Assembly: GCA_965208325.1 (NCBI GenBank)
Contig: OZ242326.1
Span: 32,001 to 96,000 of the forward strand
Length of the DNA stretch: 64,000 bases
Direction: 5' to 3'
From: Candidatus Poribacteria bacterium
GTDB taxonomy: Bacteria; Poribacteria; WGA-4E; PCPOR2b
A program made the position numbers. Below are positions 33,001 to 42,000 of the stretch, piece after piece. Position 1 is the stretch's first letter, and the number at the start of each line of letters is the position of its first letter.

Positions 33001-36000
33001 CCCTATTGAAAACGTTTTATCCAACTTCCGTATTGGTTACCGGATGGGACATCCTTTTCTTCTGGGTTGCGCGCATGACGATGTTTGGTCTACAGTTTAT
33101 GGATGAGGTGCCGTTCCGCCACGTCTACCTTCACGCATTAGTTGCCGATGAACAAGGACAAAAGCAGAGCAAATCCAAGGGCAACGCCATAGATCCCGTG
33201 CCAACGATTCAGGAATACGGGGCAGACGGTTTTCGGTTCGCGCTCAGCTATTCTAACGTACCTAATCCTTATATTGCTTTAGGGCAACCTCAGATTGAAG
33301 CGGGGAAACGGTTCGCAAACAAGATTTGGAATGCCTCTCGATTTCTACTAATGAATCTTGATGGTTACGACAGTTCCGCGCCCGTTAGCGGCAATTTTCT
33401 CCTTTGTGACCGATGGATTCGTAGTCGGTTTAACCACACTGTAAACGTTGTTACGGCCGCCTTCGAAGAGTACCGATTCAGCGATGCGGCGCACGCACTG
33501 TATGAATTTTTATGGCACGAATTCTGTGATTGGTATATCGAAATCATCAAGCAACGGTTGTATTACACTGACCAACCCGATGCGAAACACACGGCGCAAA
33601 CTGTCGCCGCCCAAATCCTCGAAAGCACGATGCGCTTGCTCCACCCCATGATGCCGTTCATCACTGAAGAAATTTGGCAGCAACTGCCCCATCAAGGAGA
33701 GAGCATATTGGACGCTAGTTGGCCAAGGGCTGATGCAGTGCTGGAAGATTCAAAATCGGAAAATGCCATGAAAACCATCATGAGTGTTATCGACAGCATC
33801 CGCAGCGTTCGTGGTGAGATGAATGTCCCGCCAGCCAGCGAAATCGAGGTGTTGATTCAAGTCCCGGACGCTGATTCTCGCGAACTCCTAACCAATCACC
33901 TGGAAGAATATCTTCCAGCGTTCACGCATTTCTCAAGAATTTCTACCGCGGCACACCAAACGAAACCTGACGCAGCCGCAGCCGCAGTGATTGGCGAAAT
34001 TGTGATTTATATCCCGCTTGCGGGAATAATCGACATTGACAAGGAAAAAGCGCGTTTACAAAAACGGATCGACAAGGTAATTAAGGATTTAGACAGCACC
34101 CAGAAAACCCTCAATAATCCAAACTTCATTGAGCGGGCACCGGAGGCGGTTGTTGAACAGAGGCGTTCTCGGTTTAAGGCGCTCGAATCGGAAAAGAAGA
34201 AGTTAGCTGCGAATTTGCAGATGTTGGCGTGAAATGTGAAAGGAACCTAGGTGGGATATGAATGCGATAGTTGCGCGTCAAGTTTAAGAACCGTTGTGAA
34301 TTTCTCTACGCTTCCAAACATTGTCAACGGTTGTCTCTATTGCGGCTGGGTACGTTTGCTCGGCTAGGCGAGCCGCGGGTGCCGCCCCAACTTTTTCAGT
34401 AGTGTGTCAACCTCTTTGCCGTATGTATTGAAAGGATCCTGCATTTCAAATGGGTCTTCATGAGTAAAGTAAATTTGATGCCAATCAACAATGCAAGGCA
34501 AGCGATTTTGGGACAGATAGCGCATCACCTGTGTTCGTGCTTTTGCTCTGGTGTCCTCAGGGGCATTCTGAATAGCAACATTAAGCTGCTGATCGCTTGT
34601 TAGCCTCCTTGCGTGGCCTTGATTCTCCAATTCATAATAGAGCCCCTTTTCCGTATGCATGTGGTGATACTGCAGATCGAGACTCTCAAGCCACGGATCG
34701 TCCCAATCCAATCCTTCGTCCGCCATGAAGGTCTCAAGCAGCCATTTTTTTGCTACCCAATCAACCCGATCGGTTAAACGCTCCCAATCCGCTTCCAAGT
34801 CGTCCAAGACAGATTCCCATTCGGTCAAAACCCAATCAGTGTCTTCATCCCGGCCTTTTAGTAATTTTTGTGCCAGATTTAAATATTCACGCTGCAGTTC
34901 AACGGCGGAGATAGTTCCTCCCGAATCTAACTCGACCATCCACTTAAACGACTGATCTCTCGAAATCTGTTTAATGGCTTCAACCGGATTAAGAAGGCTC
35001 AAATCGCGGGGTCGATGCCCTTCTTCAATCAAATCGAGAATTAGAGAGGTCGTACCAACCTTCAATGCGGTTACATATTCAGACATATTGGAATCTCCGA
35101 CTAGCAGGTGCAGCCGCCGATATTTTGTGTGGTCACCCAGTGGTTCATCTCGAGTGTTGATGATTGCGCGGCTAAACTGGATCCATTCATAAATTTCTGT
35201 GACGATGTGATCTGCACGTTGAGAAATTTGGAAGCCTACAAAGTCGTCGCGGCGGCAATGGGCATCTCCAAACTCAAGAATTTCTTCGTGTCCGCCTACT
35301 CGACCTGCGCCCGCAAAAATCTGCCGTGTCACAAAAAAGGGCATCAATGTCGGAATCACAACCTTGTAGAAAGGAATATCCCGCCGGAGTTGGTAATTTT
35401 CATGGCAGCCGAATGTCGCCCCGGTGAGGTGATCCACGTTATTCTTGAAAAAAGAAACCTCCTCGCCTAACCCAATGTCGTTTAGTACGTCAGCAAGCAG
35501 CCGTTCAATAGATTTATCGTAAGCGAGAAGATCGAAAAGCTTAACGCATTCCGGCGTTGCATATTCCAGATGACCCATATCAATATAAAGCCGCCCCCCA
35601 TTGAACAGGAAACCGCCGTTGCCCGGCGGTTCGCCCCAGTCTCGATAGTGCATGTCAGAGATGCCAAGCTTTAATTCGTGGAAAACGTAATCTCTGACTC
35701 GTGCAGCGACCCCTTCAGGCGTGCCAAAAGATTGGTCGATGTTCGCCAAACATCCATATTCCGTTTCAATGCCAAATATGCGTCTACTCACAACGTTCCC
35801 TCATAGCGGGCTAAAGCCAATCTGAAATAGCTGCATTAATATCTTCCGCAGAAATCGAGCGAAACTTGCTCTTGCTTCGGCGGGATTCTTGCAAGACGCC
35901 TACATTAATCTGCCCTTGGTTCAACTCTCTCTTGAGCACGCCGTGTATGTGCTCCATGTCCATATTAAGATTACCGGGATTCTCCTCTTCGCAACGGCTG

Positions 36001-39000: not shown

Positions 39001-42000
39001 CTACCCGCTTGCCTATTTCTAGACTCCGTCTCGACGCACATCGTTGAAGTATCCGCTCGCCGCTCTTATCATGGGCAACTAGCTGAAAAAGACTGCGGCA
39101 TTCAGCCGTGGAGTATTCAGGATGTGCATGGTCGTTGTATAGACGAGCACCGTTGTTTAGAATTAAGTCGCTCTTGATTTCAAGTGCAGACAGATTGCGA
39201 TGCCGGTCCGCTGCCTGGTGACTCCGCTCATCTGGGTGTTCCTCCAGTGTCTTTGCGCGGAAGCCGCGCACATCTTGTAACGGGTCCTCGCCGCTGTAAT
39301 CCCACATCGGATAAAAATCGCCGTGTCTATAACTCTTGATTAATTCGATGGATTGTTGGACTGGATCGATGTTGTCCTCGCCTTCAATTGTAATGCCGTA
39401 TTCCGTTTCGATTCCCAAGAGTCTTTGCATAATTATTAGAATGCGTCGTCCTGAATCCTCCCGTTTACGAATGGGGAGTTGGAGGGGGTGATAACACGGT
39501 TGCAGCAATTCCACCGGGATGCCCAAATCGTAGGGGTTGGGCATCCCTATCCACTAAATGGCGTTTCCTACCCCTTACGAAGGGGACGTTAGCGGGGGTA
39601 GAATCACTTTTACGGACAGATCCGCACCAATGCCTAGATTACGTGAGTCGCGGTAGATTTTCTGCGGTTTGATTTTTCAGGGCGAAATGGGGTTACCTTG
39701 ACAACTTTCTCAGGGTCATAGTCGAGCAGTTTCAGCCAATCTTCCACACTATCCGTCGCCGGAAAAATTTCATTTTCGCGGTATTCTGCTGCAACTGCAT
39801 CCAGGAGATCGCCTGCACGAATCCCGACGCCATCATCACCAGGGGCATCAACTTCTTTAATGTGTTCGCTGCGTTCAATTGCCCTTTTGATTGCGGATTC
39901 TTTGGCACGTTGAATTATGGAAGCAATAATCGCACCATTACAAAGATCGCCCCGATACAACGTGTCACGACGACCGTTTTGCAAAACAACCTCTAAGAAC
40001 TTGTTACTTTCGGTGCGCTGAAACAGTTCGCTGCAGACCAAATCAAGGAGGTGCGAAACAGCGTCTTCTGAATTGCCGTTATGCGTTTCTAGCACTTCAG
40101 GATCGATTGGTAGATCTGACGCGAGATAAATGCGGGCGATTTCCTCCGCCCCTTCTTTATCCGGCCGCCTGACCCTTATCTTTCGGTCAATGCGTCCAGG
40201 GCGCAGAATCGCAGGATCGATAAGATCCGGGCGGTTCGTTGCGAGAATTATCACGACATCTTTCAGCGACTCGAGCCCGTCCATTTCGGCACAAAACATC
40301 GGTACAACCGTGTTTGAAATGTTATGGGAGCGGAAGGATCGGCGTGTTCCCAAGATGGACTCTGCTTCGTCAATAAAAACAAACGGTAGGAAACCCTCGT
40401 GCCGTTTTTCACGCGCAATCTGGAAGATTTCACGCACCTTGCGTTCCGATTCGCCAAGCCACATATTTAGAATTTCCGGCCCCTTGATGTGGAGGAAACA
40501 CCCTGTGACATCAGATCCTGTCTCTTGTCTCAATCGCTGCGTCAGATTGTAGGCCGTGGCTTTGCCAATGAGCGTCTTGCCGCAACCGGGAGGGCCATAC
40601 AACAGAAAACCCTTGGGAGGCGCATATTGGAAGCGATTAAAGAGGTCAGGGTAGAGAATCGGAAGCTCAATAGTATCTTTAATTAGTTGAATGGTATCAT
40701 TCAATCCTCCAATTTTCGTCCAAGGCACCTGTGGCACGTCTTCGAGGAAGTAATCTTTCACTTCTTTAACTTCAAGTCGTTCAAGCGCAACTCTAAAGTT
40801 TGCATCGATACGAATTTCTTCGTTCGCTTTGAGTTTTGCGTTGGCGAGATCGGTCGACCGGTTTAATACAACCGCCTGCAATCCATGTTCCTGCCCAACC
40901 CGTAGTCGGCCGTCAGGCATCACATCAACAATCTTACCAGTTGGTCCGGACTGGTTGTATCCTAGCTCGCCAACTACGACATACGCCTCGTTAAGCAGTA
41001 CACTGTAACCGATTTTGAGAGACGAGGGATCCATTTGTGGATGAAGGTTTGCAAAATACTCTGAACCGCCTACAATCACATGGGCAACATCTTTTTTCGG
41101 CAAGCCTAACAGTGTCCCAATTCGATTTGCGGGTGCCGTGAGTTTTTCAACGACCTGCTGCATCTCGACGATTGTCTGTCTCGCCTCTTGAAACGTCATT
41201 TCATCTTCCAGGATGGCACGCCGCAGTTCATACAGCAGCGGACGAATGCCGTCGTCTTCAGGGGTTGCGAAGATGAGTTGGTCGACTAACATCAGAGATC
41301 GAGGTAATCCTGCCGTATCCTCATCATCTTCCCCAATCTCTTCTTCAAAGTCGTCATTGTCGAATAATCGTATGCGCTCCTCGGATATTTTCTCATGCCG
41401 GTTAACATCTTTTTTGTTTTGCATCAGACTTCTCCTTGGAACAAAATGATGGCTGATTAAATGGTTGCACTCAATACGTAAGTTCTAATTTCAATGTAAC
41501 AAGATGGCGGTAGGCTCCATCCCGGAAAGACCGCTAATGGTTAACGCGAAATTCAAAATTTCAAGTCAATCTCAATGCTGCGAAGTGTATTCGTAAAGGT
41601 TCGAGAGGATTCTTGAAAATAGCCGGTTTGAATCGAACCGGCCGAACATCTTTCATTGCCTAGATTGGGGATGCAGCGGTTCGCCGAACAAGTGTTGGTT
41701 AGGTATCGTTGGGAGACAAAATTGTAATTCTGATTTCGTGAAACCTTACGACTTTTTGTCATGCGAGGACAGACTTATTCTATCACAACCCCAAAAAAAC
41801 ATCAACGCAAAATCGTAATTTGGGAATGTGCTTATTCTTTAAAACTTGTATGAAAATACATCTTTATTTATCTTGACGATTGTTCTGACCACAACCGTCT
41901 AATTCCTCCCCTCACACAAGCAGGACACACCGCTGGTCACATTTTGCCGAATCGGGTCGCCGCCGAGAGCGGATGAAACCTTCCATAACTAGCAACCCTG

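Follow-up and report, generated by a model that had tools for sequence, protein, structure and literature searches.

In Mycobacterium tuberculosis, the genes of the Pup-proteasome system follow the order Mpa-Dop-Pup-PrcB-PrcA, with PafA further away. UBact-proteasome loci of Gram-negative phyla were reportedly described by Lehmann, Udasin, Livneh and Ciechanover in BBRC in 2017. The two sets of 20S genes in Rhodococcus are close paralogues and belong to one Pup system. Pup and UBact are disordered tags that are ligated via the side chain of a C-terminal Glu by glutamine-synthetase-like enzymes, as outlined in the section cited here (PMC2588565), and a passage of a 2026 JBC review (PMC13022661) names Rhodococcus erythropolis the “apparent sole exception” among proteasome-bearing bacteria, which otherwise have a single alpha and a single beta subunit. 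With two each of the alpha and beta subunits, R. erythropolis resembles the genome described below in that its 20S genes come in two sets; in contrast, the Poribacteria double all six components, including tag, ligase, deligase and ATPase, and their two sets are only 24 to 41% identical and fall into two clades.

The window, that is, the whole stretch of DNA analyzed, comprises 64,000 nucleotides of a Candidatus Poribacteria genome (contig OZ242326.1). The genome-wide survey's note had described here a gene cluster encoding a PafA-like ligase, 20S alpha and beta subunits, UBact, a Dop-like enzyme and an Mpa/ARC-type ATPase. This was borne out by the ORF listing, in which six intact co-directional ORFs (cluster 1) occupy window positions 34364 to 41424 on the minus strand, with the following features.

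41425..42155, no strand: intergenic region upstream of cluster 1, 730 bp, presumed promoter region
39634..41424, minus strand: ATPase1, Mpa/ARC-like proteasomal AAA+ ATPase, 596 aa; Pfam AAA, Prot_ATP_ID_OB_N and OB_C
37910..39544, minus strand: Dop1, Dop-like deamidase/depupylase homologue; PF03136, 561 bits; TIGR03688, 497.8
37446..37646, minus strand: UBact, basic ubiquitin-like tag, 66 aa; PF20513 and NF033388
36637..37443, minus strand: beta1, 20S proteasome beta subunit; PF00227, 71.3 bits; catalytic Thr1
35811..36659, minus strand: alpha1, strongly divergent 20S alpha subunit, under the family cut-offs; identified by Foldseek and by likeness to verrucomicrobial alpha subunits
34364..35791, minus strand: PafA1, PafA-like, presumed UBact ligase, 475 aa; PF03136, 466.7 bits

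The upstream region contains a single sigma-70-like site (41805-41777, minus strand; 9 of 12 matches, with TG). Such sites were not more frequent in the scanned region than expected from shuffled sequence (14 versus 10.1 +/- 3.0), and the site hints only faintly that 41425..42155 may be the promoter region of cluster 1.

The NCBIfam equivalog cut-offs were missed by ATPase1 (TIGR03689, 455.8 bits; cut-off, 504.75), beta1 (TIGR03690, 167.3; cut-off, 191.9), alpha1 (TIGR03691, 74.6; cut-off, 139) and PafA1 (TIGR03686, 372.4, and TIGR03688, 363.6, each under its own cut-off), while Dop1 exceeded that of TIGR03688 (492.3). The PDB sequences closest to ATPase1 are the M. tuberculosis Mpa/ARC entries 7ljf and 7px9 (344 bits). 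UBact scored well above the cut-offs of both of its families (PF20513, 72.4 bits versus 27.8; NF033388, 75.3 versus 35) and terminates in ...YRQRTGE; since it already ends in Glu, deamidation would not be required. Among its 132 homologues, the named ones are called [quoted passage not shown], and the poribacterial protein is thus already known to NCBI as UBact. The Dop1 ORF as listed encodes 544 aa and its relatives measure 504 to 520 aa; an internal ATG at 39430, where the sequence reads MQRLLGIETEYG, is the likely true start and would give 506 aa. In the alignment, Dop1 retains the Dop loop and a D-H-A-H motif beside the catalytic Asp, where PafA1 carries D-M-G-H. All four Pup-ligase paralogues of the genome retain GxExE as well as the catalytic Asp. 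The UBact-type ligase may or may not be orthologous to PafA in the strict sense (AU p, 0.34). PafA1 is strongly acidic (pI about 5), and its AF2 model has a pLDDT of 78.9.

The beta1 propeptide spans about 38 residues, with a processing site between G and TTVVA. For alpha1, which also fell short of the Pfam cut-off (PF00227, 21.5; cut-off, 22.4), translation probably begins at the ATG at 36647, giving 278 aa. Near its C-terminus the protein carries an acidic insert whose length varies, and its AF2 model (pLDDT 67, pTM 0.70), with a helix at the N-terminus, found its best Foldseek matches in M. tuberculosis 20S chains (E 3e-8; target-normalized TM 0.65 to 0.68).

A second full operon of the same gene order, with a Pup of 65 aa ending in RGGQ, had also been claimed, and we found it on the same contig. 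Cluster 2 (contig positions 2235053 to 2241507) lies about 2.2 Mb from cluster 1 in this one-contig genome of 4.7 Mb (4,707,648 bases), and its six genes follow the identical order, with Pup (PF05639, 65.4 bits; TIGR03687, 48.7 bits) replacing UBact. Its Dop, ATPase, beta and alpha exceed the NCBIfam equivalog cut-offs. No stops or frameshifts were detected in the clusters. Both operons are complete and, judged by their catalytic residues, apparently intact. PafBC-like genes were not seen beside cluster 2. A fifth PF00227 match at contig positions 3904660 to 3905172 fits the separate HslV recorded by the survey.

BLASTP between the clusters returned exactly the 24 to 41% identities given earlier: 38.4% for the ATPases, 40.6% for Dop, 33.8% for beta, 23.6% for alpha and 40.6% for PafA; UBact and Pup gave no match. 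Identities to outside references were higher throughout, with cluster 1 41 to 59% identical to Verrucomicrobia (ATPase, 59.2; Dop, 53.2; beta, 53.6; alpha, 41.5; PafA, 52.1) and cluster 2 39 to 55% identical to Nonomuraea of the Actinomycetota (55.0, 48.3, 39.4, 43.5 and 48.7, respectively), so that each of the five cluster 2 enzymes is nearer Nonomuraea than cluster 1. Among verrucomicrobial UBact loci, 43 measure 17 kb or more, and in every one of them all cluster proteins match cluster 1 best. In trees of the Pup-ligase family, in which few tips carry names, the four paralogues fall into four separate supported clades, each with sequences of other phyla: Dop1 and PafA1 group with sequences named Verrucomicrobiota, Latescibacterota, Gemmatimonadota and Armatimonadota, and Dop2 and PafA2 with Entotheonellia/Tectomicrobia, Moduliflexus and Actinomycetota, cluster 2 branching with the first two and outside the sequences named Actinomycetota. 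The references and trees support the earlier claim of two old, separately kept systems and show that clusters 1 and 2 are affiliated with different clades of system and are not recent copies.

Cluster 2 shares with the actinobacterial Pup system its six parts, their order and the GGQ end of Pup, and its ATPase tail, GGAYL, resembles the GQYL of Mpa; it differs in residing in a Gram-negative-type candidate phylum and in that PafA2 adjoins prcA, from which it is distant in actinobacteria. Cluster 1 matches that system in architecture and fold families but differs in its basic tag and ATPase tail. Both the family models and the gene order make it a full member of the UBact loci of Gram-negative phyla, from which it differs in that a complete Pup system is encoded in the same genome; the UBact proteins seen elsewhere mostly carry VDP[ND]Q, whereas the poribacterial ones carry VDKDQ.

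The two tags are opposite in charge. UBact has a pI of 9.6 to 11.0 (seven Poribacteria) and Pup one of 4.1 to 4.4, and over the last 45 residues the net charge is +3 to +5 for UBact (11/11) and −12 to −17 for Pup (9/9). The ligases show the inverse pattern, with −21 to −41 for PafA1 (n = 7) and −2 to +12 for PafA2 (n = 8). Residues 1 to 100 of ATPase1 carry −14 and residues 1 to 115 of ATPase2 carry +1; the acidic N-terminus is not common to four verrucomicrobial ATPases (0 to −5). A complex model of PafA1 with UBact scored 0.83 (best control, 0.01); of 157 solved complexes, 116 attained that mark, as did 2 of 215 mismatched pairs. The three runs of the model share at least 59% of contacts, with a partner pLDDT of at least 52. 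In the model, UBact residues 39 to 66 run along PafA1 residues 351 to 393 and reach the catalytic region at 71 to 74. Of the 18 groove contacts, PafA1 contributes five acidic residues and no Lys or Arg, and the aligned PafA2 positions include one acidic and four basic residues. The model supports binding of UBact to PafA1, although the pass may reflect similarity to 4BJR, the solved complex of PafA with Pup.

Probably, two pathways of ubiquitin-like tagging and degradation operate side by side in this genome, largely insulated from each other, and we infer the following activities and partners. In system 1, PafA1 would join the C-terminal Glu of UBact to substrate lysines and Dop1 would take it off; the acidic N-terminal region of ATPase1 would recognize UBact, and ATPase1 would thread substrates into an alpha1/beta1 20S core. 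System 2 would be a canonical Pup system in which Dop2 deamidates the acidic, GGQ-ending Pup and depupylates, PafA2 ligates, and ATPase2 docks by its Mpa-like tail on an alpha2/beta2 core. Insulation would stem from the charge inversion of tags and partners, the separate ligase/deligase pairs, and tails matched to differing alpha rings; opposite tag charge, matching ligase charge, ATPase tails and very different alphas together suggest such a separation.

An unlikely alternative is a single network. Its tags and ligases would be distinct, yet either ATPase would serve either core, or the four 20S subunits would assemble into hybrid particles, so that duplication widens substrate choice and regulation without independent pathways. 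It would accommodate the activation-pocket Lys, which aligns without variation across all 21 alpha sequences compared (those of alpha1, alpha2 and Nonomuraea), the catalytic Thr1/Asp17/Lys33 common to both beta subunits (20/20 aligned sequences), and Dop1 and Dop2 charges without clear difference (−17 to −26 versus −3 to −22). However, alpha1 and alpha2 are only 23.6% identical and differ in their N-terminal gate segments, the ATPase tails differ systematically (xV[IV] in 10/10 UBact-type ATPases; GG[AST][YF]L in the ATPase2 type, ending [YF]L in 9/9), and both tags are retained in 161 of 176 genomes.

Those tails bear on a less probable alternative, that UBact is a reversible regulatory mark and ATPase1 a free unfoldase, with degradation left to the Pup system. 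The GQYL tail of Mpa inserts into alpha-ring pockets, as stated in the cited part of PMC9599533. ATPase1 ends in ...THVI, without the penultimate Tyr of an HbYX or GQYL tail, so its docking to the 20S core is an assumption, and the terminal Glu of UBact would permit tagging without a Dop step. Against this, only 2 bp separate the UBact gene from beta1 directly behind it, alpha1 comes next within a single block of co-oriented genes, and the arrangement recurs in all 43 verrucomicrobial loci that measure 17 kb or more; beta1 retains its catalytic triad; and the V[IV] tail is kept across two phyla, as a docking element should be.

The survey had also put forward the pair as the rule across the class, and it proved to be so. 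Among 176 Poribacteria genomes, 173 of them in the class-level group, Pup_ligase matches occurred in 173 (at least four in 159, as counted in the search table), Pup and UBact each exceeded the cut-off in 167, and both tags occurred together in 161 of the 173 class members, with a few lineages having lost one system. Profile searches detected no Pup_ligase, Pup or UBact in the three genomes of the phylum's other families. The cluster 1 ATPase was not found in four genomes (G061, G072, G005 and G006) and the cluster 2 ATPase in three (G131, G071 and G057); three more genomes with one tag missing retain that system's ATPase at 62 to 69% identity. Either system is thus occasionally lost, and neither is indispensable. 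Across 401 sampled Verrucomicrobiota, a single Pup match (28.8 bits, inside a 963-aa frame) was judged spurious, leaving 0/401 credible cases.

This sporadic loss, and an Entotheonellia sequence as the nearest named relative of Dop2, would fit a scenario in which one cluster was acquired horizontally not long ago, or is redundant and decaying, so that the two co-occur only transiently. Entotheonellia are another sponge-associated group. We regard such transience as very improbable: nearly every family of the class has both clusters, six UBact and eight Pup loci from other Poribacteria retain the gene order except for split clusters in G014, recA and PPDK each flank cluster 2 in five of seven further loci, the frames and catalytic residues are intact, the two clusters diverged congruently across families and genomes, and the GC content of the cluster region (0.47 to 0.48) is unremarkable. 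Although most genomes of the phylum are metagenome-assembled, an assembly or binning artefact joining clusters of two organisms can be practically dismissed, because a single contig bears both here and in many further one-contig genomes (e.g., G043, G101, G147 and G022), and proteins this divergent are not strain variants. We propose that both systems were already in place when this poribacterial class radiated, and that inheritance has been vertical since then.

Our literature search, which did not cover the UBact paper itself, found no printed report of Pup and UBact co-occurring in one genome. By analogy, two insulated pathways may be likened to eukaryotic ubiquitin, SUMO and NEDD8, where several sets of tag and enzymes are kept apart by partner specificity, although their folds and chemistry are unrelated to those of Pup and UBact. 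Reviews describe a single bacterial proteasome; here, a bacterium of the sponge-symbiont type carries two complete, anciently separated tag-proteasome systems with oppositely charged tags.

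The genome is a single contig of 4,707,648 bases, on which Pup_ligase genes number four while Pup and UBact each occur once. Cluster 1, which carries the UBact, consists of six open reading frames that run in one direction on the minus strand of the window (34364-41424):

39634-41424, minus strand: AAA+ ATPase (ATPase1), open reading frame with Pfam AAA, OB_N and OB_C domains
37910-39544, minus strand: Dop-like enzyme (Dop1), open reading frame, PF03136 at 561 bits
37446-37646, minus strand: UBact, 66 aa, C-terminal RTGE, matched by PF20513 and NF033388
36637-37443, minus strand: 20S beta subunit (beta1), open reading frame with Thr1, Asp17 and Lys33
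35811-36659, minus strand: divergent 20S alpha subunit (alpha1), open reading frame, below sequence cut-offs
34364-35791, minus strand: PafA-like enzyme (PafA1), PF03136 at 467 bits

The genes are tightly spaced, with a gap of 2 bp between tag and beta1 and an overlap between beta1 and alpha1, and the two Pup_ligase enzymes bracket the tag and 20S genes, the Dop-like one upstream and the PafA-like one downstream. The same gene order was found in four verrucomicrobial UBact loci (L011, L012, L013 and L031). The tag passed both UBact models (PF20513, 72.4 bits against a cut-off of 27.8; NF033388, 75.3 against 35). ATPase1, beta1, alpha1 and PafA1 all scored under the NCBIfam equivalog cut-offs; for ATPase1, the TIGR03689 score was 455.8 against a cut-off of 504.75, and its best PDB sequence matches were Mpa/ARC. 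Cluster 1 contains every gene by which a UBact system is recognized, namely the tag, two Pup_ligase enzymes, 20S beta and alpha subunits and a double-OB ATPase. Judging from relatives, Dop1 probably starts at an internal ATG at 39430, giving 506 aa, and alpha1 at 36647, giving a likely length of 278 aa. The alpha1 model (pLDDT 67, pTM 0.70) has a helix at its N terminus, and its best Foldseek matches were Mycobacterium tuberculosis 20S chains (E 3e-8). A promoter and terminator scan of cluster 1 returned counts no higher than the shuffled expectation. The sequencing runs listed for this DNA, four from one study, included no RNA run. Directly upstream of the cluster, at 42156-46062 on the minus strand, lie two genes, one encoding an SOS-response-associated peptidase of 223 aa (SRAP) and the other an error-prone polymerase of the DnaE2 kind, 1051 aa long; we dropped this adjacency as meaningful, since the two neighbors were absent at all six further poribacterial UBact loci fetched.

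Cluster 2 lies at contig positions 2235053-2241507 and has the gene order of cluster 1. Its Pup (65 aa, C-terminal RGGQ) passed PF05639 (65.4 bits against 27) and TIGR03687 (48.7 against 41.45), and four of its proteins exceeded their equivalog cut-offs: Dop2 (566.8 against 492.3), ATPase2 (704.9 against 504.75), beta2 (281.6 against 191.9) and alpha2 (258.4 against 139.05). PafA2 fell slightly under its own (TIGR03686, 529.5 against 551.3); in the trees it is nested among PafA sequences of the Pup type (clade support 100 and 99), and it carries a one-residue insert and a Gly following the catalytic Asp. PF00227 had five matches genome-wide, the fifth of which, at 3.90 Mb, is consistent with HslV. 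The genome-wide survey's note had described two full six-gene clusters, one UBact-type and one Pup-type, with a shared gene order, and both were located on the single contig. BLASTP between the clusters also reproduced exactly the 24-41% identities that the note had given for the paralogues (ATPase 38.4%, Dop 40.6%, beta 33.8%, alpha 23.6%, PafA 40.6%); UBact and Pup gave no BLASTP match to each other.

Residues required for activity are intact in both clusters. The GxExE motif and catalytic Asp are kept in all four ligase-family proteins, Thr1, Asp17 and Lys33 are kept in both beta subunits (20/20 sequences), and the alpha pocket Lys was invariant in all 21 alpha sequences.

We then compared both clusters with outside references. 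The Pup-type reference was the Nonomuraea gerenzanensis chromosome, which is filed among plasmids. UBact-type loci came from a scan whose query was an alignment of 18 UBacts of non-poribacterial type; 80 of at least 549 loci were used, 79 of them titled Verrucomicrobiota or its subgroups and one Alphaproteobacteria. At all 43 UBact loci of at least 17 kb, each cluster protein had its best match in cluster 1.

Percent identity of cluster 1 and cluster 2 proteins to verrucomicrobial (UBact-type) and Nonomuraea (Pup-type) references
Protein; cluster 1-Verrucomicrobia; cluster 2-Nonomuraea; cluster 1-Nonomuraea; cluster 2-Verrucomicrobia
ATPase; 59.2; 55.0; 39.3; 39.4
Dop; 53.2; 48.3; 41.6; 45.2
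beta; 53.6; 39.4; 36.6; 35.4
alpha; 41.5; 43.5; 25.0; 28.7
PafA; 52.1; 48.7; 36.7; 40.5

Cross-type identities were 24-45% for all five proteins, and each cluster was nearer to the outside references of its own type than to the other cluster, in agreement with the proposal that these are two old, separate systems. By sequence comparison, clusters 1 and 2 are two kinds of system and not the outcome of a local duplication. When 1.84 billion representatives were searched with a profile, 7,728 members of the Pup-ligase family were returned, and in family trees built from the best 150 of these (129 kept by length) plus references, Dop1, PafA1, Dop2 and PafA2 fell into four supported clades. Few tips in these trees are named; those near Dop1 and PafA1 belong to Latescibacterota, Gemmatimonadota, Armatimonadota and Verrucomicrobiota, and those near Dop2 and PafA2 to Entotheonellia/Tectomicrobia and Moduliflexus; Dop2 and PafA2 branch outside the tips named Actinomycetota. 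About 40 of the best 150 representatives (among proteins P0128-P0267) form clades, labeled X30, X4 and nearU, that fall outside the Dop and PafA of both the Pup and the UBact type; many of their members measure 550-620 aa and have two stretches matched by the family profile.

All 176 available genomes of the phylum were surveyed for the pair. Pup_ligase genes were present in 173, with four or more in 159; Pup and UBact were each found in 167 and both tags together in 161, so that the pairing holds as a rule across the class, as had been claimed. Three genomes from the phylum's other families had no Pup_ligase, Pup or UBact. G064, G124 and G007 each lack one tag but still possess the matching ATPase at 62-69% identity; the cluster 1 ATPase was absent from G061, G072, G005 and G006, and the cluster 2 ATPase from G131, G071 and G057. 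Across 14 loci from seven other genomes, gene order was kept in both clusters except in G014, where both are split, and the divergence of cluster 1 from family to family parallels that of cluster 2. In G014, which stands for one poribacterial family, the UBact locus is reduced to tag, beta, alpha and PafA, and the Pup locus lacks PafA but keeps the ATPase, Dop, Pup and both 20S subunits (L098 and L099); many Chthoniobacterales/Udaeobacter loci are likewise reduced to UBact, beta and alpha. Some genomes (G009, G030, G008, G054, G106 and G143) have 6 to 9 Pup_ligase matches, of which some may be artefacts (contamination reaches 15% in G030, and completeness is 64% in G009) and others extra paralogues. 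Outside Poribacteria, the survey of co-occurrence covered Verrucomicrobiota; among 401 sampled Verrucomicrobiota there was no credible Pup, and a lone 28.8-bit match inside a 963-aa frame was judged spurious.

The surroundings of cluster 2 are also partly kept. Directly upstream lies recA (contig 2242420-2243478; 11421-12479 in fetched locus L008), which is likewise upstream of the Pup cluster in five of seven other poribacterial loci fetched (the loci listed with this observation are L095, L097, L101, L103 and L104); a pyruvate phosphate dikinase (PPDK) gene is downstream in five of the seven. The mycobacterial Pup system is tied to the DNA-damage response, and by analogy the kept recA neighborhood may not be accidental.

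The two tags carry opposite charges. UBact has a pI of 9.6-11.0 and a charge of +3 to +5 over its last 45 residues (11/11), and Pup a pI of 4.1-4.4 and a charge of -12 to -17 over the same length (9/9). Their partners mirror this: the net charge of PafA1 is -21 to -41 versus -2 to +12 for PafA2, and at the ATPase N terminus it is -14 for residues 1-100 of ATPase1 and +1 for residues 1-115 of ATPase2. No clear charge difference was seen between Dop1 and Dop2, and the acidic ATPase N terminus was not found in verrucomicrobial ATPases. The ATPase tails differ as well. ATPase2 ends in GGAYL in this genome and in GG[AST][YF]L or similar in 9/9 Poribacteria, with the final [YF]L in every one; UBact-type ATPases end in V[IV] in 10/10 sequences from two phyla. 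The [YF]L tail resembles the GQYL of Mpa, which, according to a passage in PMC9599533, enters the alpha-ring pockets, and the Nonomuraea tail is GQYL too. Opposite tag charge, mirrored partner charge and differing ATPase tails would together hold the two pathways apart, and it is from these charge, tail and partner differences that we infer that systems 1 and 2 may be insulated. Comparison of the UBact and Pup profiles by hhalign was not significant (E 0.04, probability 1.3%); the match is colinear, along D..LL ... Y.QR.G[EQ], with charges inverted, and is suggestive of homology between the tags. The tag end itself is not fixed across the phylum: GGE takes the place of GGQ in some poribacterial Pups, and TGQ that of TGE in a few poribacterial-type UBacts (the VDKDQ form; examples in loci L093, L099, L103 and L105 and proteins P0049, P0074, P0077 and P0093). 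Because the end residue switches, the requirement for Dop deamidation would differ among close relatives.

A model of PafA1 in complex with UBact scored 0.83, against 0.01 for the best control; of 157 solved complexes, 116 attained that mark, as did 2 of the 215 mismatched pairs. Contact agreement between runs was at least 59% and partner pLDDT at least 52. This pass may reflect likeness only, because the PafA-Pup complex 4BJR is already solved. In the model, UBact residues 39-66 follow PafA1 residues 351-393 to the catalytic region at 71-74, and of the PafA1 residues at the 18 predicted groove contacts five are acidic and none is Lys or Arg, versus one acidic and four basic residues at the aligned positions of PafA2. 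The support for the view that UBact may be joined to lysines and may send proteins to the proteasome is this complex model and its margin over the control. We know of no experiment on any UBact system.

The relationship of PafA1 to the PafA of Pup systems is less straightforward. Identity within a cluster (Dop1-PafA1 47.7%, Dop2-PafA2 46.2%) exceeds the 40.6% shared by both presumed cross-cluster orthologue pairs, and scores did not mark PafA1 as PafA rather than Dop in the family models (TIGR03686 for PafA, 372.4; TIGR03688 for Dop, 363.6; both below cut-off), in the PDB sequence search (Dop entries at 283 and 275 bits, PafA entries at 264 and 262) or in Foldseek, which did not separate PafA 4bjr (E 1.5e-34) from Dop 4b0r (E 4.2e-33). 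The PafA pattern by the catalytic Asp is D-V-G-S-H with a one-residue insert, and the alpha-loop residues used for comparison are those of Table 1 of Hecht et al. 2020 (PMC7947786). In PafA1 and 13 examined members of its clade the pattern is D-M-G-H or close to it, with PafA's Gly and next Ala, no insert and no Dop-type His; in the alpha-loop, PafA's His is present and two Thr common to PafA and Dop are missing. By residue counts in the alignment, UBact-type PafA retains about 50 residues at a place that holds 67-80 in Dop and 38 in Pup-type PafA; a second, anchored measure gives 46-56, 51-64 and 31-54, respectively. The AF2 model of PafA1 gave no answer on whether its alpha-loop is helix or loop (residues 191-231, pLDDT <50).

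In maximum-likelihood trees the PafA and Dop of the UBact type paired with each other (support 99 in FastTree and 97 in IQ-TREE), which, like the identities, hinted at an independent origin of the UBact-type ligase. An AU test, with groups defined after a tree had been viewed, gave no grounds to reject one common clade of PafA (delta lnL 9.65, p 0.341), and we keep independent origin as a lead only. Quick trees of the two alignment halves gave opposite results. For the N-terminal half the constrained tree had the higher likelihood (p 0.56), so the quick-tree result is not robust; for the C-terminal half, where the predicted groove for the tag lies (PafA1 351-393), the result was borderline (delta lnL 46.7, p 0.087). 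PafA1 residues ~243-475 (window 34364-35065) group with UBact-type Dop. This C-terminal grouping could possibly have come from co-adaptation of both enzymes to one tag or from exchange between PafA1 and Dop1. According to Hecht et al. 2020 (PMC7947786), the enzymes of Nitrospirae group with the Dop and PafA clusters of Actinobacteria. We regard it as rather doubtful that the two systems are parallel inventions kept apart by charge inversion, with UBact-type PafA not an orthologue of actinobacterial PafA. Under that reading, either a Dop-like enzyme was duplicated separately, or the tag-binding C-terminal half was remodeled or homogenized with the partner Dop for a basic tag; if it were true, the ligase would have evolved or been refitted twice, and Poribacteria would offer a natural example of two bacterial ubiquitin-like and proteasome pathways that are orthogonal to each other within one cell.

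Passages in three reviews, two of them by Weber-Ban (PMC13022661, PMC8223512 and PMC6466877), place bacterial proteasomes mainly in Actinomycetales and Nitrospirales and describe a single core-particle regulator in Actinobacteria; the 2026 JBC review among them (PMC13022661) states that bacteria with proteasomes encode a single alpha and a single beta subunit, R. erythropolis being the only apparent exception. Sporadic Pup systems beyond Actinobacteria and two PafA paralogues, Dop and PafA, are described by Iyer et al. 2008 (PMC2588565), and UBact is mentioned in PMC7203096. Our literature searches (UBact; Poribacteria with proteasome; related terms), which did not cover Lehmann et al. 2017, returned no report of Pup and UBact co-occurring. 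Poribacterial Pup and UBact proteins are already named in NCBI records, and the components are of known kinds with no new protein family; the novelty is the stable pairing, its conservation and anatomy, and the charge-inverted tags with separate partners.

A class with two complete tag-ligase-deligase-unfoldase-protease sets conflicts with the single-system picture of the reviews. The charge-inverted tags and their partners offer a directly testable specificity rule, and the Pup system provides an internal control, in the same cell, for the uncharacterized UBact, whose role as a degradation tag is testable by reconstitution. The pair is a natural experiment in the orthogonality of ubiquitin-like pathways.
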